Below are positions 45,455-62,099 of a stretch of DNA of 64,000 nt, piece after piece. The DNA lies in NCBI GenBank assembly GCA_045545475.1, contig JAZQAZ010000023.1, forward strand, positions 72,387-136,386. Reading direction: 5' to 3'. The position numbers and the translations under genes were made by a program. The notes under the pieces are model-generated. The model was not told where the DNA came from. It made no database searches and saw only the letters and a list, made by a program, of their open reading frames with translations. This DNA comes from Clostridia bacterium (GTDB lineage: Bacteria > Bacillota > Clostridia > CAKSNL01 > HGM11501). Each line of letters starts with the position of its first letter. Position 1 is the stretch's first letter.

Positions 45455-46368
45455 TTTTTTACCTCCCTTGATTTTGTTCCGAATAGCTGCAGCAGTCCTA
45501 TTCCCACAACCAGTATGCAGAATAGCACCGCTTTTGCCTGACCGACGCCACGATTCGTAACATTGGAGCTGAAGGAATTTACAATATTAAGTGCCATAAG
45601 CTCCGTGGTTCTTATCGTGCTTCCGTCGGCAAGCATTTGGAAGGGCCTTCCCGCCGTAAGAGCTAAGTTCTGATCATAAAGCTTAAATGAATTGGTTAAT
45701 GTCAGAAAAGTGCATATTGTAATTGACGGCATCATGTTGGGGATGATAATTCTCCTCAGTGCCTGAAAGCCGGTGGCTCCGTCAATTTTGGATGCTTCAA
45801 GCATATCCTCCGGCACAGACTGAAATCCTGCGATATATATAATCATCATATACCCCACCTGCTGCCAGCACATTAAAATCACAAGTCCGATAAATCCAAG
45901 TCTTCCGTCCAGCATTATGGATGTACTGTAAAATGACAGAATGTAGTCAAATATCATAGACCAGATATAGCCAAGCACAATACCTCCGATTAAGTTTGGC
46001 ATAAAGAAAACTGTTCTGAAAATATCAGCTCCCCTTATTTTACTGGTAAGGGCGTAGGCCACAGCGAATGCAATAAGATTTATCAGAATAAGCGACACAA
46101 AGGTGAACAGTGCCGTATTTTTGAAGGCGTTAACAAAGGACGCATCCGAAAACGCTTGAATATAATTGTCTATTCCACTCCATTCCCAATCGCTTGTAAG
46201 CCTGAACTTTGTAAAAGACAGGAAAAGTCCCTGCATAAACGGCCATATAAAGCCTATAAAAAAGGCAATCAATGTAGGCAAAAGGAAGAGCCAGCCCATG
46301 CGGGCAACGGGCTTCCTTATAAGACTTGACGACAAACCGCCTCGCTCCCTGCGGATTTTTTTAATCAC
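45451..46368 (-). CDS. Carbohydrate ABC transporter permease
   Basis: FRTVFFMPNLIGG, EASKIDGA. Confidence 0.92.
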   Translation of the reverse strand: MIKKIRRERGGLSSSLIRKPVARMGWLFLLPTLIAFFIGFIWPFMQGLFLSFTKFRLTSDWEWSGIDNYIQAFSDASFVNAFKNTALFTFVSLILINLIAFAVAYALTSKIRGADIFRTVFFMPNLIGGIVLGYIWSMIFDYILSFYSTSIMLDGRLGFIGLVILMCWQQVGYMMIIYIAGFQSVPEDMLEASKIDGATGFQALRRIIIPNMMPSITICTFLTLTNSFKLYDQNLALTAGRPFQMLADGSTIRTTELMALNIVNSFSSNVTNRGVGQAKAVLFCILVVGIGLLQLFGTKSREVKN

Positions 46369-46396
46369 TTAAAATCACACTCTTCCTTTAATGTTT

Positions 46397-47677
46397 TTAC
46401 TGATTTTCCAATGTATACTGCTGTTCCCAACCGGCAATAAACGCTTTTTCTACTTCGGACCAGTCGGAAAGTCCCGCACTGTATTTAGTAAGAGCGTCAG
46501 TAACTCCCATACGCCACATTTCAACTCCGGGCGTAAAGTTAAAGTCCCAGCTTACAGAATACTTTCCTTCATTAATATATTCCGATGCATTTCTTATAAA
46601 GAGATTGGTATCCTCAGGTGCTCCTTCGTAAGGAATAGCACCAAATTCCTCGGTCATAACCTTTGTTCCCTCCTCAGATGTTACAAGCCAGTCCATGAAA
46701 TCAAGAGTTGCCCTTATATCTTCTTCGGAAGCGTTTTTATTTACCGCCCAACAGTTTTCCGTACCGGAGCAAAGTCCGGCATTTTCCTCTCCCGGAACGC
46801 CGGTATATATGGGAATCATCTTAAGTTCGTCATCCGTAAAGCCTGCTTCCTTAAGCTTGTGATATTCCCATGAGCCATTTTGATAAAACACTGCCTTACG
46901 CTCGGTAAATTCTGCGGTTGCCATATCAGCCGTGGCTGTTGCAAGGCTTGCACCCGTAACAGATGAGTTATTTATATACAAGTCCCATATGTTTTTAAAT
47001 GCATAAAGGTGACTTCCCGTAAGCTTCGGCACCTGAAAATTAACTCCTCTGTCCTTAAATTCATAATAAAGAGGCATGTTTGCCAGATGTCCTGAAAAAC
47101 GCCACGAAGAAGATGCGTCCAATCCCGATGAAGTGAAAGCGTCAAACCCAAGCTCTCCGCTTCTTTGGTGAATGTCAGAAGCCACAGCGGATAAAGTTTC
47201 AAAGTTGTAAATATCGTCAATTGCATAGCCTGCTTTTTCCAGTAAATCCGTATTTACAATTATTCCGAAGCACTCATAACAATATCCAATGGATGCCGCA
47301 CTTCCGTCCTCGTTATAAAGGATTATATCCTGATTGAGTTTTTCAAATACCCTTGTTCCCCTAAGATCATAGCAATAGTCCCCCCAGGTTTTAAGTGATT
47401 CCATATTTCCCACAACAAACAAGGTAGGAGCATTTTTCTTGTCCATCTCGGCGATGAGAGCCGTGTTATATCCGCCGGATGCCGCAGTTACCACTTTAAC
47501 GTCTACGCCGGTTTGATTTTTGTAGCTCTTGGCAATATTTTGAAGTGCAGCATCTGCTTCGGGTTTAAAGTTAAACCAGTATACACTTCCTGCCTTTTCT
47601 TCCTTTGTGCAACAGGTAAGGGATAAAATTATTATCGTGGCAAACATAAATGCAAATATTTTTTTCATATAAATCAT
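46397..47677 (-). CDS. Carbohydrate ABC transporter substrate-binding lipoprotein
   Basis: Lipoprotein-type signal, VYWFNFKPE, FYQNGSWEY. Confidence 0.9.
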   Translation of the reverse strand: MIYMKKIFAFMFATIIILSLTCCTKEEKAGSVYWFNFKPEADAALQNIAKSYKNQTGVDVKVVTAASGGYNTALIAEMDKKNAPTLFVVGNMESLKTWGDYCYDLRGTRVFEKLNQDIILYNEDGSAASIGYCYECFGIIVNTDLLEKAGYAIDDIYNFETLSAVASDIHQRSGELGFDAFTSSGLDASSSWRFSGHLANMPLYYEFKDRGVNFQVPKLTGSHLYAFKNIWDLYINNSSVTGASLATATADMATAEFTERKAVFYQNGSWEYHKLKEAGFTDDELKMIPIYTGVPGEENAGLCSGTENCWAVNKNASEEDIRATLDFMDWLVTSEEGTKVMTEEFGAIPYEGAPEDTNLFIRNASEYINEGKYSVSWDFNFTPGVEMWRMGVTDALTKYSAGLSDWSEVEKAFIAGWEQQYTLENQ

Positions 47678-47792
47678 CCTTTCAATAAAGATAGTATATC
47701 TATTATTCCCAATCTGAATACAAAAAAGTAAATTTATTTTTTAAATGTGTTTTTATTTGCTAATATCGACATTTTTGACGTTCCGTAAAAAA

Positions 47793-47821
47793 ACCCAAGG
47801 ACGCATTTCGCGTCCTTGGGT
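47793..47821 (-). terminator. Terminator (identical copy at 50557..50585)
   Basis: ACCCAAGGACGC-atttc-GCGTCCTTGGGT with an adjacent A-tract. Confidence 0.85.
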
Positions 47822-47826
47822 GCTAA

Positions 47827-48180
47827 TCAACCTAATGGATTTTTTACATTTCCTTCTTCATCAAATATAACTTTTTTCCCGGTTTTACTATGATAAAAGT
47901 TACGTGTGCCATCTTTGCCTTCAGCAAAAGTCAATTCTGTCCCTACCGGCATATCAAATATAGATAAAACTGCAGGCTCGATTTCAAACATTGTCCCAAA
48001 ATCACATACTGTCATATTTTTAGGGTTGCTCAAAAAATCATTGGTGTCAATATCTGATAAAAATACCCACCCATTATCAACATCATGTTTACTTTTTTCC
48101 CTTATACACCATCTTAATTTTCCTTTTCCATTCAACAAATTGTTAGAGAGTATCGACCCTCCCATTCCCATGCTCGCCAT
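47827..48180 (-). CDS. Immunity protein (DUF2185/Imm33-like)
   Basis: RE.....DNGWVFLS..DT.DF..NP.N..V, EPAV..IFDMPVGT. Confidence 0.75.
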   Translation of the reverse strand: MASMGMGGSILSNNLLNGKGKLRWCIREKSKHDVDNGWVFLSDIDTNDFLSNPKNMTVCDFGTMFEIEPAVLSIFDMPVGTELTFAEGKDGTRNFYHSKTGKKVIFDEEGNVKNPLG

Positions 48181-48196
48181 TTCTAAACTCCTCCTT

Positions 48197-48298
48197 TTAT
48201 TCGTATTTATGACTCCGATTGGTTTTTGGTAATTCCGGGCGATAATTAGCAGGATTCCTATACCAATCTAAAAACTCTCTTCTGCTCAGTGCTCCCAT
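48197..48298 (-). pseudogene. GH-E (HNH/EndoVII) nuclease toxin C-terminal remnant
   Basis: MGALSRREFLDWYRNPANYRPELPKTNRSHKYE* resembles the GH-E C-terminus; directly precedes the immunity gene. Confidence 0.7.
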
Positions 48299-48307
48299 AG
48301 CAAACAA

Positions 48308-48349
48308 GACAAAAGGGGACGAGACAAAAAAGGTACGTCCCCTTTTGTC
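48308..48349. repeat. REP-like element (partial inverted copy plus full 27-mer)
   Basis: GACAAAAGGGGACG then GACAAAAAAGGTACGTCCCCTTTTGTC (48323..48349). Confidence 0.9.
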
Positions 48350-48391
48350 CACGATCATTTGTTTCTCTCCTTAGATAAAAAATATGTTATT

Positions 48392-49297
48392 CTAGTCTTT
48401 TTCTTGGATTTTGGCATATTCTGTTGGTGGTATACCCGTCACTTTTTTAAAAAGTCTTGAAAAATAATGAACGGAGTTAAATCCGAGTATGTCAGAAATC
48501 TCGCTGAAATTATATTTGTTAAGACAAATGAGCTTTTTTGCTTTTTCGATTTTCAGTATGTTAAAATAGGCAACAGGGCCATTGCCGGTAAAATTTCGGA
48601 AAAGATATTTAAGCTTTGAAACGCTCATAGCTCCTGCAAGAGCAAAATCCTCCAAAGTAAATTTTTTGCTGATATTATCTTCCATAAATTTTACAATCTG
48701 TTCAAATTCGTCAGTCAGGATACTATGTTTCTTTTCTTCCCGTTGATTCATTTGTTGCGTTTTTGAAATATCTGAAAGGAAAAGCTCCAATCGTTTTTTA
48801 AAATATAATATTTTGTATTCGGAAATATCCTTTTTTAATGTCATTCTGGAAACGCCGTTAACTGTTTTTCTTGTAAAGTATTTTATACCTGTTTCTGCAA
48901 TTTCCAGAAAAATATTTTTTTGCATTGAATTAAGAGTAATCGGACGGTTATATATTTTCTGAAGCTCAGTACTGTCTGTATCAAAGCTCAATATATAGCT
49001 TGTGGCATCAGAACCTTTATCTCCCATCGTATGAAAATGCCCCGGAGCATAAATCATAATCTGACCGGGATTTAAGGTTATATTCTCATTGTTCAGTATA
49101 AGATTATGAACCCCCGATTTGATAAATATAAGCTCAGGAAAGTTGTGAGATTCTCCCTTTCCCGATACGGTAGTTTTAAAATCAATATAAAAACATGAAA
49201 AAATCCCGTTTACTTTGATAGCATCTTCAAAATTCAAAGCTTTATATTCCAAACCTATACTCTCCTTTGATTTTAATCTTTTTGTGCAAAAAATCAA
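48392..49297 (-). CDS. AraC family transcriptional regulator
   Basis: GESHNFPEL cupin; ISDILGFNSVHYFSRLFKKVTGIPPTEY; real start may be the TTG at 49252. Confidence 0.9.
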   Translation of the reverse strand: MIFCTKRLKSKESIGLEYKALNFEDAIKVNGIFSCFYIDFKTTVSGKGESHNFPELIFIKSGVHNLILNNENITLNPGQIMIYAPGHFHTMGDKGSDATSYILSFDTDSTELQKIYNRPITLNSMQKNIFLEIAETGIKYFTRKTVNGVSRMTLKKDISEYKILYFKKRLELFLSDISKTQQMNQREEKKHSILTDEFEQIVKFMEDNISKKFTLEDFALAGAMSVSKLKYLFRNFTGNGPVAYFNILKIEKAKKLICLNKYNFSEISDILGFNSVHYFSRLFKKVTGIPPTEYAKIQEKD

Positions 49298-49401
49298 CCA
49301 TTTAATCTAAATACAAAACACATTTTTATTGTTAAAATAGGCATAGATAAATGATATCCTAATTTTTACTTTTTGTCAACAATATGGAGGAGGAAGAAAG
49401 T

Positions 49402-50475
49402 ATGAATAAATTAAAACTTGGTCTTATAGGCTGTGGAAAAATGATGGCTCAGCATGTTAATGGTGTGAAAAAGAGTGAAAATGTAGAAATCGTTGCTGTT
49501 TGCGATATTATTGAGGAAAATGCAAGGGTAGTTGCAGAAGAATTGGGAAACAATGCAAAGATTTTTACAGATTACAGAGATTTGGTTTCTGAGGTTGATG
49601 CTGTTTTAATAGCTCTGCCTCACGATCTTCATTTTCAGTGTGGAATGTATTTTGCAATGCATGATAAACACATTCTGATGGAAAAGCCTCTTTGCAATTC
49701 AGAAAGGGAATGTGAAATTCTTATTGAAACTTGCGAAAAGCGTAACCTTAAGCTTATGTCTGCTTATCCGGTTCGTTTCTGGCCTGGTGTTGTTAAGCTT
49801 AAAGAACTGGTTGATTCGGGGGAATTCGGAGAAATTATTCAGATGTCAATATGGACCGAACAGCTTACCGGTGCGGATATGACATATCTTGATATTGAAA
49901 GAAACTGGCTTGTCACAAGCAGGTTAGGCGGAGGACAGCTTTTCAGCCATGGCTGCCATTATATTGATATTCTGCTTTGGTTCCTGGGAGAGCCTGTGAC
50001 AGGGGCACATATGGGTACAAGAAACGGAACTCCATGGATGATTGAAGAGGGCACAAGTGCTCTTGTAATGAAATTTGAAAACGGTGCTGTCGGTTATCAT
50101 GGTGCAACATGGGGGGCAAGGGGAACCCGACTTGGCTATGATTTCCAAATTCAAACAGAAAAGGCTCTTTTGGAATATGATCACTCCGGTGGTGAGGTAA
50201 GAATTTACAGGAAATCTGCCGTTCATACTCCTGGGCAAGAGGATAAAAAAGAAAATTACGAGGTTGTATGGAAAAGAACAGAGGAAAAATCAAAAAACAC
50301 CCAGTATGAAATCAATCACTTTACAGACTGTGTTCTTAACGATAAAACACCTCTTACAAATGGTAGAGCAGCACTTCAGGGATTAAGAGTAATCTGGGAA
50401 CTGTACTTGGCAGAGAAAAACAACAGGCTTGCAAATCTTAAAGGTCTTGGCTTAGGTGCTGTTGAAAACAAATAA
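49402..50475 (+). CDS. Gfo/Idh/MocA oxidoreductase
   Basis: GLIGCGKM, ALPHDLH, LMEKP, GGG.LFSHGCHYID. Confidence 0.92.
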   Translation: MNKLKLGLIGCGKMMAQHVNGVKKSENVEIVAVCDIIEENARVVAEELGNNAKIFTDYRDLVSEVDAVLIALPHDLHFQCGMYFAMHDKHILMEKPLCNSERECEILIETCEKRNLKLMSAYPVRFWPGVVKLKELVDSGEFGEIIQMSIWTEQLTGADMTYLDIERNWLVTSRLGGGQLFSHGCHYIDILLWFLGEPVTGAHMGTRNGTPWMIEEGTSALVMKFENGAVGYHGATWGARGTRLGYDFQIQTEKALLEYDHSGGEVRIYRKSAVHTPGQEDKKENYEVVWKRTEEKSKNTQYEINHFTDCVLNDKTPLTNGRAALQGLRVIWELYLAEKNNRLANLKGLGLGAVENK

Positions 50476-50497
50476 ACAATTTTGGGGACGGGGCAGT

Positions 50498-50535
50498 GAC
50501 AAAAGGGGACGTACCTTTTTTGTCTCCCTTTTGTC
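50498..50535. repeat. REP-like element, inverted relative to 48323
   Basis: GACAAAAGGGGACGTACCTTTTTTGTC is the exact reverse complement of the 27-mer. Confidence 0.9.
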
Positions 50536-50556
50536 TCAGGCGAACCGCAAAAAAAC

Positions 50557-50585
50557 ACCCAAGGACGCATTTCGCGTCCTTGGGT
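50557..50585 (-). terminator. Terminator (copy of 47793..47821)
   Basis: ACCCAAGGACGCATTTCGCGTCCTTGGGT. Confidence 0.8.
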
Positions 50586-50630
50586 ACTTATAAGAAGAAC
50601 TAAATTGTTACGATGTTGTCTATACTATGA

Positions 50631-50659
50631 TACCAAAAAATGTACGTCCCCAAGTGGTA
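50631..50659. repeat. REP-like element variant
   Basis: TACCAAAAAATGTACGTCCCCAAGTGGTA, 6 bp past the stop of the small immunity gene. Confidence 0.75.
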
Positions 50660-50665
50660 TTTCAA

Positions 50666-50845
50666 TTATTCGTCAATATCGTTGTGGTATTTACAGCTTT
50701 TACACCTTTGGCGTTGTTCTTCATTCCATTTGATACCTTCTGGTAAAAGTGTGGATTTCACATAACCATCTGCTACATCACATACAATGTAGCAATCGGC
50801 ACCATTGATGTTGCCACCCTTTACCGGACAATATACTGTTTTCAT
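50666..50845 (-). CDS. Small Cys-rich putative immunity protein (59 aa, not in the ORF track)
   Basis: MKTVYCPVKGGNINGADCYIVCDVADGYVKSTLLPEGIKWNEEQRQRCKSCKYHNDIDE; ATG overlaps the toxin-CT TGA. Confidence 0.75.
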   Translation of the reverse strand: MKTVYCPVKGGNINGADCYIVCDVADGYVKSTLLPEGIKWNEEQRQRCKSCKYHNDIDE

Positions 50846-51423
50846 CTAAATACCCCCACTATTTTATCAGTTTTTGCATCAAAATCTTCTTTGGAGAAGA
50901 TAGTATTAACTTTGCCATCTTCATTCAAATATGCTGCACCATCCAAAGAATAATAATTGATGTGTTTTCCATCCCATTTGTTTCTCGTAATGCTGCATTT
51001 TGCCGATGCAATATATTTCTTCGCATCATCAATTGTGCATCCATGATTAAATGCATGGTCATTTAAAGCTTCAAGACCACTAATATCAATCTGCAATGGC
51101 GGAACTCTAATAATTCCAAATTCGCCTATATTTTTTATTTTGATATAAAGTTTATAATCCGTTTCAGTTGCATCAGGAACTCTCTGTTTATAATCCTTAT
51201 AAGTTTCTGCATTTAACTTTTCATATATATGATTTTTTTCTTCTTCCATTATACCACTTTCCCCGATGCTGTCAAGATAGTCGGTGGCTTCGATTAAGAG
51301 TTCTAAGTCCTGTCTGTTGCCGTTCTTCCGCTGCTCAAGACCATATTCGTATGCTTCTACTTCCTTTTCTCCGTCATACTGCAATCCCGTTGTACGGCTC
51401 ACCGCAACTGATATATCCTCCGC
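50842..51423 (-). pseudogene. Orphan toxin C-terminal cassette
   Basis: First ~59 codons near-identical to the junction of the 1015-aa toxin, then a different CT (NDHAFNH..INYYSLDGAAY..TIF); no convincing RBS/start. Confidence 0.8.
51248..51275 (-). promoter_or_regulatory. Intragenic sigma-A promoter at the toxin junction (copy 1)
   Basis: Minus strand TTGACA-16 bp-TATAAT with TG extended -10. Confidence 0.75.
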
Positions 51424-51429
51424 ATTTTG

Positions 51430-51522
51430 AGATTCTTCGGTTTTTGGCGTTTTGCCAAAACGCCTGTACCTCAGAATGACATACGGAAGAACAGCGTCCT
51501 ATTAGTCACGAGGAAGAATCTC
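51430..51522. repeat. GTCATTCTGAG...GAAGAATCTC-type palindromic element
   Basis: Outer inverted repeat GAGATTCTTC/GAAGAATCTC, inner GGCGTTTTG/CAAAACGCC; abuts the orphan cassette. Confidence 0.7.
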
Positions 51523-51556
51523 TATAGGGTTCGACATCTATGGCGAACCGCAAAAC

Positions 51557-51582
51557 AAAAAGGACGCAGGATGCGTCCTTTT
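51557..51582 (-). terminator. Terminator after the toxin-immunity pair
   Basis: AAAAAGGACGCA-gga-TGCGTCCTTTT. Confidence 0.8.
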
Positions 51583-51613
51583 TTGCCATTAAAATCAATT
51601 ATATCTTATTCAA

Positions 51614-51994
51614 CTAATTAATTTTTACTGCAATTGATTTGCACCCCCTCTGTATAGCCTCTTCAAACCAAGAACAGAGCAAATCATATACTGCATATGT
51701 TTCTTTGAAGTCAAATTCTTTAACTTTATAGCTAATTAAATCCTTAGCATATTCATACAGATTTGTAACAAAACCTTCTCCCTCTGTATCGAATGCCCCT
51801 TCACACTGGTTGTAATCTCTTGTAAACCCAATCCAGCCTCTGCCATCATCTGGAGGATTCCCAAATATATCGTCCCAAAACCCGTCCCAAATATGTAAAA
51901 TTTCCATATTAATATCTTTTGCGCATAATATAATTTCGGGTTCACCCTCGTAACCATCATAATACTTATAATTATTCATCTTTCCTGTGTCCAT
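51614..51994 (-). CDS. Cognate immunity protein (putative)
   Basis: Acidic 126 aa; overlaps the toxin 3' end; YYDGYEGEPEI..HIWDG motif. Confidence 0.7.
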   Translation of the reverse strand: MDTGKMNNYKYYDGYEGEPEIILCAKDINMEILHIWDGFWDDIFGNPPDDGRGWIGFTRDYNQCEGAFDTEGEGFVTNLYEYAKDLISYKVKEFDFKETYAVYDLLCSWFEEAIQRGCKSIAVKIN

Positions 51995-54900
51995 TATCTA
52001 ACCACTCCTTTTGCTGTTTTGTCGCTGTTCCGTTATGACGTGCATTTATAGCTTTTCTCCACTCGCTCTTAGCAATCCATAAGTTTTTGCCTACTAATAC
52101 CTCTTTTACTGCACCGCGATGATTTTCACCGTAGCCAATTCCGGGAATCCTTCTTTCCACAACCCAGGAAATGCCTTGTTCCTTCGGTGCTCCCGGAGTT
52201 CTGGTATGCCATCTGCTCGTATATTTATAGCCATCTCTTTCCCATGTGTACTTTATTTGGTTATATCCGTTTTTCTCTTGTATATCATATGTTGCATTTT
52301 CCGGAATTTCAACAGGTGAGCGCTTTGCTATTTCTCTCGCATTTTTCTCCAGATATTCAATACTCGGAATTTCTTTTGACGATTGTCTTTCTTCACCTTT
52401 CATTATACCACTTTCCCCAATGCTGTCAAGATAGTCGGTGGCTTCGATTAAGAGTTCTAAGTCCTGTCCGTTGCCGTTCTTCCGCTGCTCTAAGCCATAT
52501 TCGTATGCCTCTACTTCCTTTTCTCCGTCATACTGCATCCCTTTCGCTTGGCTTGCCGCAACTGATATATCTTCTGCTTTTGCTCCCGCTTTGGCAAATA
52601 TCCTCTCCGTTGCTGACATATTCCTTACCCTTGATGAGGCTTTTGCACTATACGGCTTTCTTACCACATTGGAATAATAATCGCCAAAGGTCATTTTCCC
52701 TGTCATTTCCACTTGCTCTTGCACTTCTGACTTGCCGTTAGTGTTATCGGAATATGTAGTTTTCGCTCCTTCCGGGCTTGTCTGCTGTACGGTTTCCGTT
52801 TCACTTATTCCCAAAAGCCAGTTATATGACTCTGCATCTATGGTGCCTTCCTCAAACATAGTTACCGCAAGCTCTCCGACATCGGCATTTGTGACCTTTT
52901 GCCCGGATTCTGCCTTTTCCACAAGCTTATTCACCTTTTGCCTTGTCTCGGTTTCCTTTGGCATTGACTTTGCGTACTCTATCAATTCATTCGCTTTTCC
53001 GCCTTCGGTTATTGCTTTTCCCACACTTGTGTTGCTGTTGTACTGTATACTTGCATCTGCTCCCCCGAAGAACAAACCTGATACAAAGCCGGATAAAGTT
53101 TCCATTCCTACTTCTCCTGCCATATCAACATATGCCATTCCGCTTGCTTCTTCATAGCTGAATCCTTCGCTCATATAACCTCTGACAAGCTTGTTAAACT
53201 GACTTTCTCCACCCATCGTTACATTGTCTGTAACGATATTGGCAAGACTTGTACAAAATTCTTCCGACGCTTCAATTCCTCCCTGCTTAAGTATGGTCAT
53301 AAATACATCGGTAAGGCTTTCTACAACTTTTGACTTAAAGAGGTTATCTATGCCTATTTTTTCAAATGCCGCTTCAAAAATACCTGCAGATATTCCTTTA
53401 ATCAATATCTGACTGTTGCTTCCTCCATCTATAGCTGTCTTTCGCCCTTCAGAAACCGCCGCATTCATTCCTAGAAATGCAACTCCGGCACCGCCCATCG
53501 GCATAACTGCTGCAGAATCCGCAATACTCATTCCCGTGTTGTACACAAAATTCCAAAAGGGATTTTCTATGTTTTCGCTTGTTGTTCCTCTGACAGCCTC
53601 GGAAGTGTACTGTGATTTAAAGCCAAGAGCGTAAGGATCAAAACGCTCTTCGCCCACCGATTCGGTTAAAAATGTGCCAAATGCTTTAGGTGCATTTACC
53701 AGATTAGAAACAACTGTTTCGGCGTTGGCCCCAAAAGGATTCTTTATAGCTTTTTCACGTGCTTTTTCGGTTTCTTTTTCGTATATCCGCTTGTTTAGTT
53801 CAGGTTCTAATGCCCTTAAATATAACGTACATTTCGAATATCCTCCGGTATTTTCTTTTGGACTTAGCAAAGCATAATAACGGAATATATTTTTCTCCTC
53901 TTCTGTCATTTCTGCTATTCTTTCAGCCCATTCTTCATAATAGGACGTATCAGTAGAATAAGATGCTAACGATACATCAGCAATTACATTGTTTATGTCT
54001 GCATGTCCGTTAATTATATCAAGAACCCATACATCATCAGGTGTGCCGAAATAACTACCGCTGTCCATAAGTCTTTTACGCTTATCTGCTATTATCCTTA
54101 GGTAAGCGGGGTCTTCTTTTGCCGGAGTTTCAAACTCTGCAATAAATTCCCTCTGCTTTGCTTCGTCTGCCAAGCCCTTCCAATAGTTCTGCTCTTCCGA
54201 AAAGCTTCTTGCTGCATTGAGCCTGGCCTGAACTGTCCCTGCACTGACACCCAATTTCACAGAATTAGGTGTAGCAATTCCATTCCCGGAATAATGCCGT
54301 ACATATCTCCACGCCTCATCCGCCTTCTCTCCGGCATTATCTGCTTTCCACCTAAGCACTTTTTCGTTTGATGTTTCATATCCTTTACCTTTGAGATATT
54401 CATACTCCTCCAGAAGGTCTGTATTGCCCGTAACGGCATATTCCTCCCACAGTTTGCTTGATGCGTTTCTGTAGCCCTCATGGTTCAAACCCGCATACTT
54501 TTCCTCAAATCCCTTTTCCGATGGGATGTATGTAATATCCTGTTCTTTTTTTGTTTCTTTCTGCGTTTTTTCTTTGTCTTCCGCTTTCTTTTTCTCCACA
54601 AAATACCCCATAGATTTATTAGCTGAAAGCGGCTCATTAAAATTCACCGGAGAATGACTTGTTGTTTTGTTATCAAACTTTGTTACCGTCCCGGAAGCCT
54701 TAGTTTTTATGACCTTTTCATCTGCATTTTTTTCCTTAGTAACAGGAACATTAAATACATCGGAGTATGACCTTTTCCACGGAGATTTTTCTTCTGCAGT
54801 TTCCTTTTCCTCCGTATTTACAGAAGTGGCATTTGTCTTTCTTCTTTTAGCACCTTCCTCATACCATAAAGCGTTGTTTTTTCCCGAGGAAAAGGAAGAC

Positions 54901-54995
54901 TCCTTATTCTCCGACGCCTCCTTTTCATACGAAGAATTGCTTTTTCGTCTTTTGTACCCTTCCGTATAATCCTCTGTTCTGACTTTTATACCCAT
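51972..54995 (-). CDS. Large polymorphic toxin (ejection/internal-virion-like body + Ntox30-like RNase CT)
   Basis: Ala/Gly-rich hydrophobic middle (EASEEF..), junction shared with the orphan cassette, CT with RWHTRTPGAP and a terminal His; start 54995 by GGAGGGG RBS (ORF track 55019). Confidence 0.75.
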   Translation of the reverse strand: MGIKVRTEDYTEGYKRRKSNSSYEKEASENKESSFSSGKNNALWYEEGAKRRKTNATSVNTEEKETAEEKSPWKRSYSDVFNVPVTKEKNADEKVIKTKASGTVTKFDNKTTSHSPVNFNEPLSANKSMGYFVEKKKAEDKEKTQKETKKEQDITYIPSEKGFEEKYAGLNHEGYRNASSKLWEEYAVTGNTDLLEEYEYLKGKGYETSNEKVLRWKADNAGEKADEAWRYVRHYSGNGIATPNSVKLGVSAGTVQARLNAARSFSEEQNYWKGLADEAKQREFIAEFETPAKEDPAYLRIIADKRKRLMDSGSYFGTPDDVWVLDIINGHADINNVIADVSLASYSTDTSYYEEWAERIAEMTEEEKNIFRYYALLSPKENTGGYSKCTLYLRALEPELNKRIYEKETEKAREKAIKNPFGANAETVVSNLVNAPKAFGTFLTESVGEERFDPYALGFKSQYTSEAVRGTTSENIENPFWNFVYNTGMSIADSAAVMPMGGAGVAFLGMNAAVSEGRKTAIDGGSNSQILIKGISAGIFEAAFEKIGIDNLFKSKVVESLTDVFMTILKQGGIEASEEFCTSLANIVTDNVTMGGESQFNKLVRGYMSEGFSYEEASGMAYVDMAGEVGMETLSGFVSGLFFGGADASIQYNSNTSVGKAITEGGKANELIEYAKSMPKETETRQKVNKLVEKAESGQKVTNADVGELAVTMFEEGTIDAESYNWLLGISETETVQQTSPEGAKTTYSDNTNGKSEVQEQVEMTGKMTFGDYYSNVVRKPYSAKASSRVRNMSATERIFAKAGAKAEDISVAASQAKGMQYDGEKEVEAYEYGLEQRKNGNGQDLELLIEATDYLDSIGESGIMKGEERQSSKEIPSIEYLEKNAREIAKRSPVEIPENATYDIQEKNGYNQIKYTWERDGYKYTSRWHTRTPGAPKEQGISWVVERRIPGIGYGENHRGAVKEVLVGKNLWIAKSEWRKAINARHNGTATKQQKEWLDNGHRKDE
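52402..52429 (-). promoter_or_regulatory. Intragenic sigma-A promoter at the toxin junction (copy 2)
   Basis: Minus strand TTGACA-16 bp-TATAAT with TG extended -10. Confidence 0.75.
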
Positions 54996-55035
54996 ATTAA
55001 GAAATTCCCCTCCTTGCATAGCTTAAGCTTTATTC

Positions 55036-56565
55036 TTAATAGTCAAACAGAGAAACTCCGGTATCCTTTTGTATCCATTCGTTTTTACTGTCGTTATATT
55101 GAAATCCGTAATCCGCAAGAATATCTATGTATTTATTGGAAAGTGCCCTGCCACTCTGATTGGATATGATAACGGCACTCATTGCCGCACTCAAGTCACC
55201 GGTTTCCTCTCCGCTGTAAGTTTTTGTTATAGCTGTACCGTCATAATAAAGTGTGCCGTTTTCATAGTCATAGCCATTATTTATAAGAAGCAGTATATCA
55301 TCCTCCTCAAGTTCGTTTCCTGCAAGATAATTTGTCATCGCTCTGTCATAAGGAGTACTTCCGCCCCAGCGATAATAGCCTTTTTCATCAAATATCATGC
55401 CCGATAGATCGTCATAATCATATCCGTATTCCTGAAGCACAAGCTGATTTTCCGGTTCCATCTCGTCCCATCCGTTGCTCTCATAGTCATTATACGCAAG
55501 CTGTAATTCATCATACTGCATATATGACTTTTCCACTATTTTGCCATCCTTGTAAAGGAGCCCGTTTTTAAATACATATTCTCCGCTATCTTCAATACGC
55601 ATCTTTTCCGAAGCGGTCAATTCTTCTCCCGCCTTATATCTGGCGACAAGCTCGTCTGTTGACTCTTCTCCTCTCCATGGATACTCTGCACCACCCTTTT
55701 CCAGTCTGCCTGTTTCTGCATTGTATCTGAACCCATTGGCATTAAGAATATCCTTGTCTTCTTCGCTTATATTCTCCCAGCCATATGCATCATAATTGTC
55801 ATATGCAGAAGTAAATCCCCTGTTTTCGCTGGCCAGTTCTCCTTCCGGTCCATACACACTTCCGTCTGCAATCCAGTATTCTCCGCTTGAATAAAGTGTC
55901 TCTCTTTCATCGGATGTAAGAGAATCCGCCCCGTAATCCTGTGCTTTTTGCAAAATGGAATTAAGTTCCCCTTCTTCCCATTTATCCTCTTCATCCATTT
56001 CCGCAATTTGAAAATTCCTTTCAAGCTCGTCCTGGTATTTATCATACGCAAGCTGTTCAAGTTCCGGAATGACGTCATTAAGTTCCTCCATATAGTCGTT
56101 ATAGCTTTCGGCTCCTGCGGCCACAGCGTAGCTTCCGGCAATGCCGCCTGTTTGTGCGGCAGTTTTGGCAATAGTATCTGTCATTGCCGACTTTCCGTTT
56201 CTCTTGGCTGATTCGAGATATTGCTGATATAAGGGATCTTCGTTTAAGTCATATTCAAATTCCATCGTTCTGTAGTTTTCTTCGCCCTTGGTGGTATTGC
56301 TCTTGTCACGATTCCCTGCATGGGCGTACGCTGCACTGTCCTCTCCCTCACCGGAAACTCTCATCTTTCCGTCGGTGTCATAATACACTTCGCCATTAGC
56401 TTTCTCTTTATTATTATTTTCGGTATCGCCTGCTGCTTTTTTCACAGTAGAGCTGGCCTTATTAAAAATATCATTTATATTTTTGTCTTTGAAAAGCTTT
56501 TCTTCTTCATCCTTTTCCTTATTTTTTACGTTTTCATAAACAGTCTTAATATTTCCGTATGCCAT
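55036..56565 (-). CDS. Putative phage internal virion protein with acidic C-terminal repeats
   Basis: FEYD...DPLYQQY...AMTDT...TGG..SYA..A motif; lies between portal and toxin. Confidence 0.55.
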   Translation of the reverse strand: MAYGNIKTVYENVKNKEKDEEEKLFKDKNINDIFNKASSTVKKAAGDTENNNKEKANGEVYYDTDGKMRVSGEGEDSAAYAHAGNRDKSNTTKGEENYRTMEFEYDLNEDPLYQQYLESAKRNGKSAMTDTIAKTAAQTGGIAGSYAVAAGAESYNDYMEELNDVIPELEQLAYDKYQDELERNFQIAEMDEEDKWEEGELNSILQKAQDYGADSLTSDERETLYSSGEYWIADGSVYGPEGELASENRGFTSAYDNYDAYGWENISEEDKDILNANGFRYNAETGRLEKGGAEYPWRGEESTDELVARYKAGEELTASEKMRIEDSGEYVFKNGLLYKDGKIVEKSYMQYDELQLAYNDYESNGWDEMEPENQLVLQEYGYDYDDLSGMIFDEKGYYRWGGSTPYDRAMTNYLAGNELEEDDILLLINNGYDYENGTLYYDGTAITKTYSGEETGDLSAAMSAVIISNQSGRALSNKYIDILADYGFQYNDSKNEWIQKDTGVSLFDY

Positions 56566-56568
56566 ACT

Positions 56569-58446
56569 TTAATCCCCCTTTATATTATTGGCTCTTTCCA
56601 CCAAAGCTTTACCGTAATCATTAAGTGCAGCTTTTTCAGCACCTTCTGAAGCAACTTTGACAGGATTTCCATTATTTGCGCTTCCACCCTTAAAAGAAAC
56701 GGGCGTTTGAGAAAACGCTTGAGTTTTCGCCGTGTTATCCGCCACCTTTACCGTTCCTGCTTTACCTGTACGAAGCTGAGCAATAAATCCTGTAAGCTGT
56801 TTTATTTCTGTCTCAAGCTTTTTTATTTTTTCGTTAAACGTCTGGCCTTCGGATATTTTTGCCATAATTTCATTCTTTCCCTCGAAATCCATCATAGAAA
56901 GCATTATTGTTGCCTGCTGGGCATTGTTTGGATTAAAAATTCCCATTTTATATAAGTTTCCTGCAGTTTCATTCTGGCTGAGCTTTGAATAGGGATTTGT
57001 TTTTTGTGCCTTTACACTTATGTCAAAAACAGGCTGTCTTTTAAGTACAGTGCCATCTGCATCTGTCATTACATTCCCTTCGCCGTCCCTTATCTCCTGA
57101 AGAGCAATTCCCTTATTGGAATAGGACACGAACTTTTCTCCTTCATTTGGTTTCACAATTCGGAATGTTCGCTCAGTGGTGTAGAACTGCCTTATAAGCT
57201 CAATTACCATTCTCACAACCTTAACATAAGCACGATAACTGGTTTTAATTGCGTCACGGCTGGTTTTGTTTCCGGCCTCTTGTAGTGTTGCGATGGCCGC
57301 ACCGCTTGTTACGCCGGAAAGCATTCCACCCGAATTAACATCTCTGTTTCCAATGGTTTCCTTAAGCTCGCCGATCTTTCTTTCCAGAAGCTTATTATAA
57401 ATTCCGTTTACGGGATTTAAGTTTATCTGCTGAAATCTTTCTTCTGTTATATCCCCTGCAACCGATACAAAAGGCTTCGACCAGTCAGCAAACTCAGATT
57501 CATTTATTCCCACATCTTTTTTCTTGAACCATCTGGGGTTAGTTGCTTTTTTTGTGTAATTCATCAAAAGAGCATCCAGACAGTCGATATAGCTCTGCGT
57601 ATCCTTTGTCACGCTTATAACGCCATAGCCTGTTGCCTGATCCTCTTCAGGATAAAGAGTGTCAAATACGACCGGATACATGCCGTGATCGTAATATCCA
57701 CGCTCCTTATATGACGAATCTTCCTCCGACGAATAAAGAAGAGTTTCCCCGGTAAACTTGCAGTAATGCAAAACTTTCTTTCCGTTTATGTTCTTCTTAT
57801 AGTACCAGTCCACAACCAGGCTTTGATTGCTTCTGTCCACATTATCGTCCTTTTCATACTCGGTAAGGTTAACCCTTTCTCCTGTTATCTCAGCATCAGG
57901 ATATTCTTCCTTAAGCGTTTCCGTGTCTACTGCCGCACATATAAATAAATTAGAACTGCTTTGTATATCCGCCGCAGTAGGATCCCAGAAAACACGGAGC
58001 AAATCAATGTTCTTTACAGATATATCTCCAATCCCTCCATCTGCCATTGGATCCCAGAATACTCCGTAACAGCTGGTGCCGTGTTTGAGCTTATACCAGA
58101 GTGCGGATGAATATGTATCCTCAAAATCCGAACGCTCCAGTATGGCAGGGACAATATCACTAAGCAGCAATGCTTCTTCCTTGTCCGACTGCTCTCTGGG
58201 TAAAAATGCAGGAATAGGATAGTTATCCATCATATCCGCATGCTTATTTACTACGGCGTTCCACATATAGGCAGAGCTTGAAGGCATAATCCCTGTTTCT
58301 TCATCCTTTTCTCGCCACATCTGCAGACGCCAGGCTTTTTCTTCTTCAACTATTCTTGCTTCAAGATTAGCCTTTCCTTGTTTATATCGTTCCAAAATAC
58401 CCTTTGCCACAGATATTTTTTCATTCATTTTCGTTTTTTTCTGCAT
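56569..58446 (-). CDS. Phage portal protein (podovirus-like)
   Basis: 625 aa directly after TerL; GVFWDP, HGMYPVVFD, SGAAIATLQEAG. Confidence 0.8.
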   Translation of the reverse strand: MQKKTKMNEKISVAKGILERYKQGKANLEARIVEEEKAWRLQMWREKDEETGIMPSSSAYMWNAVVNKHADMMDNYPIPAFLPREQSDKEEALLLSDIVPAILERSDFEDTYSSALWYKLKHGTSCYGVFWDPMADGGIGDISVKNIDLLRVFWDPTAADIQSSSNLFICAAVDTETLKEEYPDAEITGERVNLTEYEKDDNVDRSNQSLVVDWYYKKNINGKKVLHYCKFTGETLLYSSEEDSSYKERGYYDHGMYPVVFDTLYPEEDQATGYGVISVTKDTQSYIDCLDALLMNYTKKATNPRWFKKKDVGINESEFADWSKPFVSVAGDITEERFQQINLNPVNGIYNKLLERKIGELKETIGNRDVNSGGMLSGVTSGAAIATLQEAGNKTSRDAIKTSYRAYVKVVRMVIELIRQFYTTERTFRIVKPNEGEKFVSYSNKGIALQEIRDGEGNVMTDADGTVLKRQPVFDISVKAQKTNPYSKLSQNETAGNLYKMGIFNPNNAQQATIMLSMMDFEGKNEIMAKISEGQTFNEKIKKLETEIKQLTGFIAQLRTGKAGTVKVADNTAKTQAFSQTPVSFKGGSANNGNPVKVASEGAEKAALNDYGKALVERANNIKGD

Positions 58447-58469
58447 AAAGCTCCTTTCTGCAATTATGC

Positions 58470-59885
58470 TTAATTATATTTTTTCATAAAAAAATTATAC
58501 TGACCTATTTTGCGGTTATCGGAAAGCGGATCAAACATTTTCACCTCCGCACAGGTCCCCGAAACGGGAGCGATGGGGTGTGCCATGCACATATAGCGCA
58601 CCTCATCGGCTATGTGATCTTCGCCTTCCGTATCCAGATCTTCCGGATTGTTTTTAGAAAATACCAATGACGGCATCGTTCTTATAAATCCTTCGCAGTT
58701 TGAAAACACATACATCATCGGAATATTGTTTTCGTCAAACTGCATTCTGTAATGCACCTGCATCCATCCGGGAAGACGGTTGTTGTCTCCCTTATCAAAA
58801 TAAACTCCAAAGCTTTCTGCCACATCGGCAACGCTTGTTCCTCTCGATTTATCCCAAATGGATGGATCTGCAACTCCGAAGATATCCTTCCCTTTTAGCC
58901 AGGGGTGGCTTTTTTCCGTTTCAGAAACTCTTGCGAATATCTTTTCCGGAGTCCACTTAACACCGGTATTGGCCATAACTGCTCCGCTGCTGTCCTTTGC
59001 ACAACCATAAAGTTCCATTATGCGATATAATCTGCCGTCATAGTCAATCGCCCACCATCCCACAGAAAACGGACGGGCATATCCAAAGTCAAAACTTCTG
59101 TATATCGTCCATTCCAGAGGAGGTGTAAACGGTGTAATAATGTGCGTTCCTTTCCTGTCATCGTAATGCATCGGAACATTTTTGAATTCGGAGAAAAACT
59201 GACCGTCAAAAATATCCCATTCTCCGTATAAGAGGGCCTTTTTTTCATGCAGCGGCAAGCTCTCAAGTCTTTTTATGTAGCCTGGATCATTTTCCATAAG
59301 AAATTTGTTTTCCGTAACCGTTGCCGGAATAAAAAGAAAACTTGTCCCATCACGCTCAAATCTTTCTCCCGGGTTTTCCGGAGTTATAAACATTTCTTTT
59401 ACCCACCCATGCCCTCTTCCTCCCGGGTTGGTAGATGATTTAATCTGCTTAGGAAACTTATTTGCTCCTCTTAGTCTGCTTCGCATATATTTATATTGAT
59501 ATTCTGTAAAATGCGTAAGCTCGTCAAAACGTATAATGTCATACTCCGCCGACTGATAGCCTGAAACATCCGAGTCGGAAGCGAGGAATCCAAACTCTAT
59601 AAGAGAGCCATTTACAAAGTTCATTTTATGGCCCACCGAAGAATAGGAATAAAGTTCTTTCGGAAGTATAGCCTGGGCAGTAAGTATAATAGAACGGTTA
59701 AGTTCTGGGTAAGAATTACGGAAAATTATCTGCTTTATGCCGGGATACTTAAGTGCCTTAAGAAAAGCATCAATAATCTGCCCGTAACTCTTTCCTCCAC
59801 CTGCGGCTCCGCCATACAAAACTTCGTCCTCCTCAGCATTAATAAACGCCTGCTGTTTTCGGGTTATTCTGTATTCTATTTTCAT
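58470..59885 (-). CDS. Phage terminase large subunit
   Basis: Walker A LYGGAAGGGKS, Walker B FDELTHF, STNPGG.GHGWVK, nuclease DFGY..EDHIADEVRY. Confidence 0.93.
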   Translation of the reverse strand: MKIEYRITRKQQAFINAEEDEVLYGGAAGGGKSYGQIIDAFLKALKYPGIKQIIFRNSYPELNRSIILTAQAILPKELYSYSSVGHKMNFVNGSLIEFGFLASDSDVSGYQSAEYDIIRFDELTHFTEYQYKYMRSRLRGANKFPKQIKSSTNPGGRGHGWVKEMFITPENPGERFERDGTSFLFIPATVTENKFLMENDPGYIKRLESLPLHEKKALLYGEWDIFDGQFFSEFKNVPMHYDDRKGTHIITPFTPPLEWTIYRSFDFGYARPFSVGWWAIDYDGRLYRIMELYGCAKDSSGAVMANTGVKWTPEKIFARVSETEKSHPWLKGKDIFGVADPSIWDKSRGTSVADVAESFGVYFDKGDNNRLPGWMQVHYRMQFDENNIPMMYVFSNCEGFIRTMPSLVFSKNNPEDLDTEGEDHIADEVRYMCMAHPIAPVSGTCAEVKMFDPLSDNRKIGQYNFFMKKYN

Positions 59886-60045
59886 CTTGGCTCCGCTCCC
59901 CGCTGTTCTCGTCGCTTTCCTTCGGTCGCTCCTCCCTCGCTCAAGGCTCCGCCATACAAAACTTCGTCCTCCTCGGCATTAATAAACGCCTGCTGTTTTC
60001 GGGTTATTCTGTATTCTATTTTCATCTTGGCTCCGCTCCCCGCTG
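59805..60045. repeat. 140-bp-period duplication of the terL 5' end around a GC-rich mini-element
   Basis: 59805..59905 is nearly identical to 59945..60045; spacer TTCTCGTCGCTTTCCTTCGGTCGCTCCTCCCTCGCTCAA. Confidence 0.9.
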
Positions 60046-60057
60046 CTATCACATGTT

Positions 60058-60336
60058 TTATTCTTCCTTGCCCGATAGACTGTTTATCTTTGCCGCTACA
60101 AGAGCTTTCTGTCCAAGGGACTGTTCAATTATCTTTGCATATTTTCTCTTTATTTTAACCTGCTTACCTCTGGGAACAACCATTGCTGTACCATTTAAAA
60201 TAACTACAATATCATCCTTATATCTGCCGTCGTCCTTATGAAGTGTAATTTCAACTTCTTCATTAAGGTAATCGTTTTCTTTTGTTTCTAAAATTTCTTC
60301 TGTTGCCTTTGTTGTTTCTTTTTTATTTGTTGCCAT
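60058..60336 (-). CDS. Small phage protein downstream of the major capsid gene
   Basis: L.KD..RYKDD.VV.LNG....V.RG..V motif; AAGGAG RBS. Confidence 0.7.
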   Translation of the reverse strand: MATNKKETTKATEEILETKENDYLNEEVEITLHKDDGRYKDDIVVILNGTAMVVPRGKQVKIKRKYAKIIEQSLGQKALVAAKINSLSGKEE

Positions 60337-60355
60337 AATAAAACGCTCCTTTTCT

Positions 60356-60378
60356 GCGTGCAGGCAAAGCCTGCACGC
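60356..60378 (-). terminator. Hairpin after the capsid gene
   Basis: GCGTGCAGGC-aaa-GCCTGCACGC, no U-tract on the minus strand. Confidence 0.5.
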
Positions 60379-60397
60379 CTTTAATTTTTTAATTTAA

Positions 60398-61366: not shown

Positions 61367-61412
61367 AAAATACCTCCGTTAATTAATTTTTTCTGTTCAT
61401 TAAAATCTGTTT

Positions 61413-62099
61413 TTATGCCCCGAAAGTAATTTTTTCGCCTCTGCGAACTCTTTCGAGAATTTCTTCTATCTCGTCTCCGGTCAATGACTCCACGCTTTTT
61501 TTAGTCTTGACAGAAGCCGACCTTTCATTTCCTGCTTCTTTTATTCTTCCGTTTCCGGACCTGATGTTTTCCAGCGTTGCTTTTGATGCCTTATCGGAAA
61601 TCGACTTCGAAAGCTCATCAAAATGCATAGCTCTGTATAAAGAAGTCATAGGAATTCCGGATTTCAATCCTGCACGGAACTCAGAATTATTAAATTCCTT
61701 CTTAAAATCAAATGAAGGATATTTTTTCTTTGTTTCCTTTGCTTCTGAAAGCCATTTATCATATTGTTTTTTTATCAAAGCAGCATCGCCCTTGCTACTT
61801 TTCTCCTTCTTTTTCAACTCATCAAGAATACGCTTAACCAAAGAAACCGTATCCTTTTCGTTATAATGCTCCATCAATGGTCTAAGTGCTTCTTTAAGTG
61901 CTATAAGCTCTTCTTCGGTTTCCTTCATTCCCTTGTACCTTCTTCCGAACTCTCTGTTAAACCTGTCCTGAAACTGTTCTTTATAATCATTCTTTATAAG
62001 CTTGGAAAAGGCATCGTCTCTCTCTTCCTTACTCATATTACCGGCAAGTGCCTTATTTCTTTCCGGGGTTAACTTTTCTGCCCCTTTATAATTTTTCAT
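61413..62099 (-). CDS. Putative capsid scaffolding protein
   Basis: Charged helical protein directly upstream of MCP, ending RRGEKITF. Confidence 0.65.
   Translation of the reverse strand: MKNYKGAEKLTPERNKALAGNMSKEERDDAFSKLIKNDYKEQFQDRFNREFGRRYKGMKETEEELIALKEALRPLMEHYNEKDTVSLVKRILDELKKKEKSSKGDAALIKKQYDKWLSEAKETKKKYPSFDFKKEFNNSEFRAGLKSGIPMTSLYRAMHFDELSKSISDKASKATLENIRSGNGRIKEAGNERSASVKTKKSVESLTGDEIEEILERVRRGEKITFGA

Follow-up and report, generated by a model that had tools for sequence, protein, structure and literature searches.

A toxin-tip junction that may double as a housekeeping promoter for immunity genes in a phage-borne polymorphic toxin locus of gut Clostridia

We analyzed a window of 64,000 nucleotides (nt) from a Clostridia bacterium (assembly GCA_045545475.1, contig JAZQAZ010000023.1, positions 72,387 to 136,386), the minus strand of which holds the end of a phage, as judged by PHROGs and Pfam naming; the window ends where the contig ends, and the phage genes run to that end (Table 1). 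The second gene after the P22-like portal, with a gene for a 509-amino-acid (aa) protein between them, encodes a 1015-aa polymorphic toxin composed of a phage virion-type carrier, a pre-toxin region, a short junction and a variable tip. It is this junction that concerns us here: its codons probably also spell a promoter for the immunity genes that follow. The C-terminal part of the protein reads ...EATDYLDSIGESGIM and continues into the tail CT1. The protein has a weak PHROG match (phrog_22978, of unknown function, E 1e-08), but neither it nor the 509-aa protein matches any Pfam family at E 0.01 or better, so that no MuF Pfam domain (PF04233 or PF06152) was found in them; nor does the toxin protein have a Pfam RHS or YD match.

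CT1 is followed by a putative immunity gene and an intrinsic terminator, and behind these lies an orphan cassette with the same order of parts: a stub that repeats the end of the pre-toxin region, a second tip (CT2), a second putative immunity gene and a second terminator. Besides the 194-nt direct repeat, tblastn recovers the orphan stub as a second match at 83–90% identity. Beyond two genes, for an AraC-type regulator and a GFO/IDH/MocA oxidoreductase, stands a third, relic cassette, in which a 3′ fragment of a GH-E HNH/EndoVII nuclease tip (48197..48358; PF14410, E 1.3e-12), with the final 32 residues of that domain, precedes an Imm33 gene (47827..48180; PF09951, E 3.3e-16); the hairpin of terminator 2 recurs there identically as a third terminator (47821..47793). 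In its anatomy this is a polymorphic toxin locus, accompanied by one orphan cassette and by a relic that is older. Related parts recur elsewhere in the same order: CT1-type tips lie behind the junction in one related locus (L002) and three related proteins (P0002, P0019 and P0026), and homologues of immunity gene 1, at 56–100% identity, follow related tips in loci L002, L003 and L004. CT2-related tips occur in L010, L001 and P0004, and in L010 the tip is followed by a 60-aa open reading frame (ORF) resembling immunity gene 2.

Read directly from the sequence, the minus strand is cTTGACAgcattggggaaagTGgTATAATg at 52429..52402 and cTTGACAgcatcggggaaagTGgTATAATg at 51275..51248. On the coding strand both junctions thus have the form cTTGACA-16 nt-TGgTATAATg, with consensus −35 and −10 hexamers, a 16-nt spacer, a TG one base 5′ of the −10 element and an ATG that overlaps the final two bases of TATAAT; in the 1015-aa protein the encoded peptide, LDSIGESGIM, occupies residues 864–873. 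Each site closes the 3′ end (in gene sense) of one copy of the direct repeat, and the codons after the ATG differ between the copies (AAA GGT GAA GAA AGA versus GAA GAA GAA AAA AAT). The two junctions are the sole 12/12 sites in a promoter scan of positions 46000..64000, and the exact pattern including the TG matches twice in the whole window versus in none of 100 dinucleotide shuffles. The next-best site between terminator 1 and immunity gene 2 scores 9/12. From the usual distance of 6–8 nt, transcripts would be expected to start at about 52396..52394 and, for the orphan, about 51242..51240. An earlier note on this DNA had described consensus hexamers with an extended TG on the minus strand at both junctions, with homology ending at the −10 box; sequence reading and the promoter scan confirm the former, and the copies do diverge right after the ATG that overlaps the −10 element. 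The two copies represent one duplication rather than independent events, and because perfect 12/12 sites lacking the TG also occur elsewhere, a single perfect site is no proof. The two window sites alone are not decisive, as perfect sites will turn up by chance when many windows are scanned, and the weight comes from relatives. An Rfam search over positions 47000–56000 (E 0.1 or better) gave no match, and therefore no known RNA element explains the conservation between cassettes.

The host itself uses this consensus. Its genome (2.74 Mb, 40.8% GC) contains 130 perfect TTGACA-N16-18-TATAAT sites versus about 3.5 expected by base-composition arithmetic, and 100 of them are not covered by any open frame of at least 150 codons; TTGACA/TATAAT is therefore the organism’s housekeeping promoter. 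The other 30 are an upper bound for intragenic sites, since stop-to-stop frames include 5′ leaders, and were not used as a rate. A TG is present in 55 of the 130. A perfect copy with the TG would be expected to bind RNA polymerase, although the junctions’ 16-nt spacer is a less common form. Elsewhere in the window a perfect TTGACA-16-TATAAT without TG (8297–8324, minus strand) lies in sense orientation inside a Firmicute-type fructose-1,6-bisphosphatase (FBPase) gene (6973..8928), where it may have arisen by chance or may act as an internal promoter.

The family is rare. A word-indexed protein search returned two relatives besides the window’s own protein, and a full hidden Markov model search of 1.84 billion representatives returned 24 proteins. 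A scan of 185,579 species genomes yielded 11 loci in three metagenome-assembled genomes (MAGs; Acutalibacteraceae or Clostridia, one of them from goat colon), and a search of these three MAGs plus the window’s own genome yielded 21 places. The codon-blind DNA pattern D-Y-L-D-x4-S-G-I-M found one contig (L033) in the JGI metagenomes, among which the protein pattern gave no confirmed relative; IMG/VR contained none by either the protein pattern or the codon-blind junction pattern, and GenBank phages gave no tblastn match. Among public sequencing runs, partial matches came from bovine, sheep and other animal gut metagenomes (19 of DNA type and one metatranscriptome, share 0.05). Junction DNA was compared among the window genome, the three MAGs and L033.

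Eleven different tails lie behind the junction in these loci, and further tips in proteins P0004–P0026. Those recognized by Pfam are a BURPS668_1122-type deaminase, a NucA/NucB DNase, a WHH nuclease (with a SUKH immunity protein behind it) and Ntox50. ORFs of 59–212 aa follow each tip and are putative immunity genes, some of them with SUKH/SMI1_KNR4, DUF2625 or Imm33 domains. The junction is common to carriers of different kinds, such as P0002, which bears LysM, and the ORF that comes first in L005, and orphan cassettes are also found in L006, L007, L008, L010 and L033. Because the recognized tails are toxin domains and different carriers share the junction, the polymorphic-toxin reading is secure, although CT1 and CT2 match no Pfam family. 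Two places in the window’s own genome lack the junction: a stub on contig C3, and a paralogue on contig C25 that has only the carrier region in common. The latter (C25:10773–20279) is a 3168-aa open frame that is 31% identical to toxin carrier residues 371–725 and ends in GSGGGL repeats; it has the look of a giant virion protein encoded by another, second phage.

To collect junctions of the type found in the window (type 1) irrespective of codon choice, we translated all loci and the window in six frames and took each DYLD that was in frame; this returned 13 distinct segments of 81 nt and a further one at the edge of a locus. TTGACA is intact (as CTT GAC A..) in all 14, and TGgTATAAT follows at 16 nt in 12. 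As for the two others, in L001 a 1-nt insertion throws the tail out of frame, yet TATAAT is kept, now at 17 nt, and in L008 the junction is cut after SIGE and 31 nt further on stands a complete gTTGACAaattgaaggtaaaTGaTATAATa (TTGACA-16-TGaTATAAT), encoding VDKLKVNDII. Across the 11 distinct intact type-1 sequences, none of the 14 promoter positions varies versus 40 of the 67 others (Fisher p 2e-05), and at third codon positions the counts are 0/5 and 21/22 (p 7e-05), values that overstate the independence of related sequences from a narrow group. In a closer set of sequences, variation touches 0 of 14 promoter positions, 7 of 14 spacer positions outside the TG and 42 of 148 upstream positions. 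At the protein level, the changes in the spacer turn SIGE into RTGE, RTGD or RNPD. The unselected metagenome contig L033, with its more diverged pre-toxin region, has two junctions, both of them perfect, and in one (L033a) the base after the −10 element turns ATG into ATA (Met to Ile). Given the type-1 peptide and the genome’s codon usage, the chance of a perfect promoter is about 0.002.

A second class of junction rebuilds the same elements from a different peptide. The type-2 pre-toxin region is about 39% identical to that of the window, ends ...SEFAEETAVDKTAN.. and joins its tails differently. Before the NucA/NucB tail of L010 the junction is gTTGACAaaacggcaaacaaTGaTATAATg, encoding VDKTANNDIM, and before the WHH tails of L011 and L001 it is TTGACA-17-TATACT (11/12), with VDKTANxEYT; in these two, homology ends inside the spacer and TATACT is supplied by the tail itself, read as E-Y-T. 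The complete site of L008, with VDKLKVNDII, also falls into this class. Types 1 and 2 share 6 of 16 spacer bases (by our count) and all 14 promoter bases. The bases that flank the elements vary (C or G ahead of the −35 and G or A behind it; G or A both between TG and −10 and following the −10), and even residues encoded by the hexamers differ between junctions (L/V, S/R/K, S/N, G/D, M/I) while the elements are unchanged. What corresponds by homology to the type-1 junction is an internal segment in type 2 (Y-GEANPDSEVN versus Y-LDRNPDSGIM), and codon-by-codon comparison shows that it has lost the hexamers and kept the spacer-coded NPDS. The chance of the promoter given the type-2 peptide is about 0.02 with the genome’s codon usage; neither peptide dictates the promoter. 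Counting both types, 17 junctions are visible, and each has a site scoring 11/12 or better, located at the junction or no more than 31 nt away; the site is 12/12 in 15 and has the TG in 14. The earlier note had proposed checking for suppressed synonymous variation at the hexamers among homologs, and the outcome is favorable: peptide and spacer change, and the hexamer and TG bases do not. Overall, the interpretation in that note is partly supported, mostly by comparative anatomy, its constitutive expression and silent structural operon being suppositions.

Relatives known only as proteins seem to fit the same rule. Behind [LV]D they invariably have S, R or K, residues for which codons beginning with A exist, and the tails begin ..SGIM, ..NGIM or ..DDII, or else ..SEYN or ..MLYD, the last two of which could be written with TATAAT or TATGAT in a different frame. 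P0013 carries about 35 C-terminal residues like those of the 509-aa protein directly behind a type-2 pre-toxin stub, from which we conclude that non-toxin tails are also exchanged at the junction; the 509-aa product itself has internal repeats of the G-[YF]-x-[YF] type. A degenerate cassette in L009 (1060–1200; genome G003) has an intact junction promoter sequence and a tail that stops after 7 codons, and 56 nt downstream there is a second near-consensus promoter, TTTACA-17-TGaTATAAT, before a membrane-protein-like ORF. We also considered the junction ATG as a conserved internal start codon and rejected this, as it is ATA in L033a and L008 and absent from the TATACT type.

When the loci were scanned for sites of at least 11/12, for hairpins with a T-run and for ORFs, every one had the same order: terminator, stub, junction promoter site, tail, small ORF, terminator. 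Of the 15 cassettes with their end in view, 14 have a terminator-like hairpin behind the immunity ORF, and the fifteenth ends 77 nt before the end of its locus. No further site of at least 11/12 was found inside any cassette scanned, the few others being intergenic. Metagenome contigs from other strains join 50524 to 51578 and 50659 to 51612, so that exactly one cassette is gone, terminator to terminator. Because each cassette is bracketed by terminators, the orphan immunity gene is insulated from upstream transcription and would need its own promoter, for which the junction is the only good candidate in the sequence.

A transcript from the junction would have little use as toxin mRNA. An in-frame ATG, GTG or TTG preceded by a Shine-Dalgarno sequence is found in the first 89 tail codons of none of 15 tips, six of them having one only at codon 90 or later, and CT1 and CT2 lack any in-frame ATG. 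Most immunity ORFs, by comparison, have a Shine-Dalgarno sequence of their own (for example aaggag, gaggagg or gggaggag), 260–525 nt separating the −10 element from the immunity start. Since the predicted start lies past the ATG and the tips offer no usable start, the most fitting reading of the transcript is that of an immunity mRNA preceded by a long leader. The earlier note’s proposals that such a transcript omits the junction ATG and mainly serves the immunity gene, and that each cassette has its own promoter, fit the absence of usable starts in the tips and draw support from the terminator bracketing, respectively. In one metatranscriptome, an RNA contig with unlike flanks bridges 51240–51284, which shows no more than that the library contains a related junction.

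Table 1. Features of the toxin locus and its surroundings, in window coordinates.
Feature	Position	Strand	Basis or remark
Holin	62805..63278	−	PHROGs/Pfam
Amidase	62234..62827	−	PHROGs/Pfam
Major head protein	60398..61366	−	PHROGs/Pfam
Terminase large subunit	58470..59885	−	PHROGs/Pfam
P22-like portal	56569..58446	−	PHROGs/Pfam
509-aa gene, between portal and toxin gene	55036–56565	−	no Pfam family
1015-aa polymorphic toxin gene (phage virion-type carrier, pre-toxin region, junction, tip CT1)	51972..55019	−	ORF
Pre-toxin repeat copy 1, end of constant part	52388..52581	−	direct repeat, 88% identical to 51234–51427
Predicted junction promoter P1	52402..52429	−	−35 52429..52424; TG 52410..52409; −10 52407..52402; encodes LDSIGESGIM
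Toxin tip CT1, 142 aa	51975..52400	−	no Pfam match
Putative immunity gene 1, 126 aa	51614..51994	−	overlaps toxin stop; AAGGAG 10 nt before ATG
Intrinsic terminator 1	51549..51582	−	hairpin AAGGACGCA-TCC-TGCGTCCTT and T-run; RNAfold −19.8 kcal/mol; also in hairpin and T-run scan
Orphan stub, pre-toxin repeat copy 2	51234..51427	−	no ribosome site ahead of stub
Predicted junction promoter P2	51248..51275	−	−35 51275..51270; TG 51256..51255; −10 51253..51248
Orphan toxin tip CT2, 134 aa	50845..51246	−	no Pfam match
Putative immunity gene 2, 59 aa, four Cys	50666..50845	−	phrog_27009, E 9e-13
Intrinsic terminator 2	50547..50586	−	RNAfold −28.0 kcal/mol; also in hairpin and T-run scan
GFO/IDH/MocA oxidoreductase gene, between relic and array	49384..50475
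AraC-type regulator gene, between relic and array	48392..49297
Relic third cassette	47793..48358	−	GH-E tip fragment, Imm33 gene and terminator; no junction

Some other features of the region lie outside this argument. A 27-nt palindromic element, GACAAAAGGGGACGTACCTTTTTTGTC, has five copies in the genome, four of them on this contig (about 50497–50524 on the plus strand, and 48333–48346, about 37650 and about 36875 on the minus strand) and one on contig C3. It lies at the edges of toxin stubs, both in this locus and in relatives, with QKGTYLFC or RGRTFFV as its translation there, and may mark points of truncation or insertion. Beside two of its copies, at 36918–39645 on the minus strand, are five small same-strand ORFs (114–205 aa) with no Pfam family, which may be another cassette island. 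Among the phage genes, a short ORF upstream of the terminase gene (59882–60052, minus strand) repeats the first ~27 residues of the terminase (MKIEYRITRKQQAFINAEEDEVLYGGA), and a hairpin-like motif recurs 140 nt apart nearby (59848–59864 and 59988–60004), which suggests a tandem duplication of the 5′ end of the terminase gene.

Given the observed anatomy and pattern of conservation, our favored reading, to which we assign a probability of roughly 70%, is that the junction is a functional and selected sigma-A promoter serving the immunity genes. The last ten codons of the constant part would double as a housekeeping promoter of the sigma-A type, kept by selection on the DNA, and every tip/immunity cassette, attached or orphan, would be an independent transcription unit that opens with the junction and closes with its own terminator. 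Transcription would start about 7 nt after the −10 element, inside the variable tip and past the junction ATG, and the RNA would consist of an untranslatable toxin-tip leader of ~260–525 nt followed by an immunity gene with its own ribosome site. The predicted promoter activity, if constitutive as we suppose, would keep immunity proteins made while the phage late operon is off, including that of the orphan cassette despite the terminator that cuts off upstream transcription, and would thus have a protective role; a cassette newly recombined at the junction would gain the promoter for free.

Several points weigh against this reading, beyond the relatedness of the sequences already mentioned. 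The regular expression that gathered the 11 sequences required the hexamers, so that test was not blind, although comparison with the DYLD listing shows that it dropped only the indel and truncated copies; similarly, the type-2 sites were first noticed by promoter scanning. The L-D and G-I-M residues could also be constrained as protein, and P0013, one of the relatives known only as protein, lacks the VDK residues. As promoters the junctions are not ideal: they have no A/T-rich upstream element, and among the 130 perfect genome sites the spacer is 17 nt in 104 and 16 nt, as in the junctions, in only 18. Sites scoring 12/12 without a TG occur elsewhere, including inside the FBPase gene of the window. 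Some immunity genes overlap the toxin stop, hinting at a translational coupling that a junction transcript would not give. Finally, the RNA contig across the junction shows neither a start nor its absence.

The resemblance to a promoter might in principle be a hitch-hiking coincidence, in which the peptide (as a linker or processing site) and recent divergence conserve the junction and transcription plays no part. Perfect 12/12 sites do lie inside ordinary genes such as that for FBPase, the sequences all belong to a narrow clade, the peptides DYLD and SGIM show good conservation, and the RNA contigs reveal no start site. Such a coincidence seems to us distinctly improbable, however, given that variation hits the spacer and every base that flanks an element and never the 14 promoter bases, that residues encoded by the hexamers change (L/V, S/R/K, G/D, M/I) with the hexamers intact, that the frameshifted copy in L001 retains TATAAT, that type-2 junctions rebuild the same elements with another peptide, and that the chance of the promoter given the peptide is only 0.002 to 0.02. 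It is also conceivable that the island is chiefly a substrate for cassette swapping by homologous or site-specific recombination and that any promoter activity is incidental. Recombination needs contiguous identity rather than two hexamers with a free spacer, and within type 1 the spacer has 7 variable positions out of 14, types 1 and 2 having almost wholly different spacers; moreover, the deletion joints (50524>51578 and 50659>51612) lie in the terminator regions between cassettes and not at the junction, and no recombinase gene is adjacent. We therefore regard this explanation as unlikely, though some observations favor it: the same tips are found with various carriers and types of pre-toxin region (as CT1 is in the window, P0002, P0019 and P0026), L005/L028 and L033 show a block of ~42 nt of identity in otherwise diverged DNA, metagenome contigs branch at the junction and some strains are without the orphan cassette. 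A role in recombination and a role as promoter are not mutually exclusive.

The remaining alternative accepts the promoter and differs on its product, which would mainly be an intracellular toxin tip together with the immunity protein, forming a prophage addiction module of the toxin–antitoxin (TA) kind. The precedent is Salmonella Rhs, where internal promoters in the conserved region of main and orphan genes are active in every condition tested and lead to toxic internal products (PMC7043789). At our junctions the predicted start falls after the ATG, 0 of 15 tips have a Shine-Dalgarno-preceded in-frame start in the first 89 codons (with no in-frame ATG at all in CT1 and CT2), and the promoter is kept in L001 and L009 though the tip is frameshifted or deleted, all of which makes an addiction module the least probable of these explanations, and very improbable in itself.

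A broader interpretation can also be offered, tentatively and at somewhat less than even odds: the motif that demarcates constant part from tip would be the footprint of a portable promoter rather than a protein motif, with LD....SGIM and VD....NDIM as by-products of the hexamers. Captured cassettes would be transcribed at once, and lysogens would hold an expressed library of orphan immunities against toxins injected by related phages. Were this true, the junction motifs of other Gram-positive polymorphic toxin families would merit re-reading at the DNA level. Polymorphic toxin loci must keep immunity on with toxin and delivery off, and must do so for each newly captured or orphaned cassette; the pattern described here, unusually clean in that peptide and spacer change and the hexamers stay, suggests a simple solution in a phage of ruminant-gut Clostridia, in which the recombination junction itself is the promoter. 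The case also allows a direct test of selection acting on protein and promoter codes that overlap.

Several known systems resemble this one in part. In contact-dependent growth inhibition (CDI, with its VENN motif) and in Rhs orphan CT/immunity arrays, the variable tip and its immunity gene come after a conserved junction, and orphans keep a stub of the constant part; these motifs have been treated as protein or recombination landmarks, unlike the junction motif here, which coincides base for base with promoter elements. The integron platform of Pc promoter and attI likewise has a constant part that supplies the promoter from which captured cassettes are expressed. It is an analogy only, as there is no integrase or attC here and the promoter would lie inside coding sequence, repeated with each cassette.

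In the polymorphic MuF toxins of temperate Firmicute phages, a head/packaging protein has toxin domains that vary at its C terminus, and a small immunity ORF comes next (Jamet et al., BMC Biol 2017, PMC5576092). Our locus differs in that the 1015-aa and 509-aa proteins have no MuF Pfam domain and the toxin gene is second, not first, after the portal. The MuF paper, which defined these phage-borne toxins, assumes that lysogens are protected by the prophage immunity gene, and in its text the strings 'promoter', 'orphan', 'motif' and 'transcri' each occur 0 times (PMC5576092). A junction promoter would bear on this protection of lysogens by their prophage from toxins in sibling virions, which that text assumes and does not address. 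Nuclease colicin immunity genes have a constitutive promoter of their own besides the tightly regulated toxin promoter (PMC9742991). As in colicin operons, a second immunity promoter here would protect cells while the toxin gene is off; those operons differ in being plasmid-borne, with a single cassette under SOS control and without swappable tips, orphans or a junction motif. The colicin immunity promoter sits inside the colicin gene.

[quoted passage not shown] These lie 89 nt upstream of the sequence coding for PxxxxDPxGL, were confirmed by 5′ RACE (rapid amplification of cDNA ends) and reporters, and were active in all tested conditions. As in our loci, a promoter is placed inside the conserved coding part just before the variable tip, in full-length and orphan copies and ahead of many different tips. 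The Rhs promoter is active while the delivery part is hardly expressed, whereas here activity is predicted only; and the Rhs internal start allows translation of a toxic product, with a TA-like role, which our junction, judging from its sequence, does not. Further differences are that our candidate promoter is the demarcation motif itself, with its predicted start inside the variable tip and no usable toxin start, and that it belongs to a phage of Gram-positive gut Clostridia and not to a type VI secretion system Rhs protein, with no Rhs/YD shell and a junction peptide other than PxxxxDPxGL. The novelty implied by the earlier note is lower than it appeared, since conserved internal promoters upstream of a variable tip are already published for Rhs; a further literature search brought up nothing of relevance. 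Our reading, if correct, would extend that finding to Gram-positive phage-borne toxins and offer a reason for the conservation of the junction motif: the principle is already in print, and what is new is the Gram-positive phage toxin family, the exact coincidence of motif and promoter and the comparative evidence that it is the DNA, not the peptide, that is kept.

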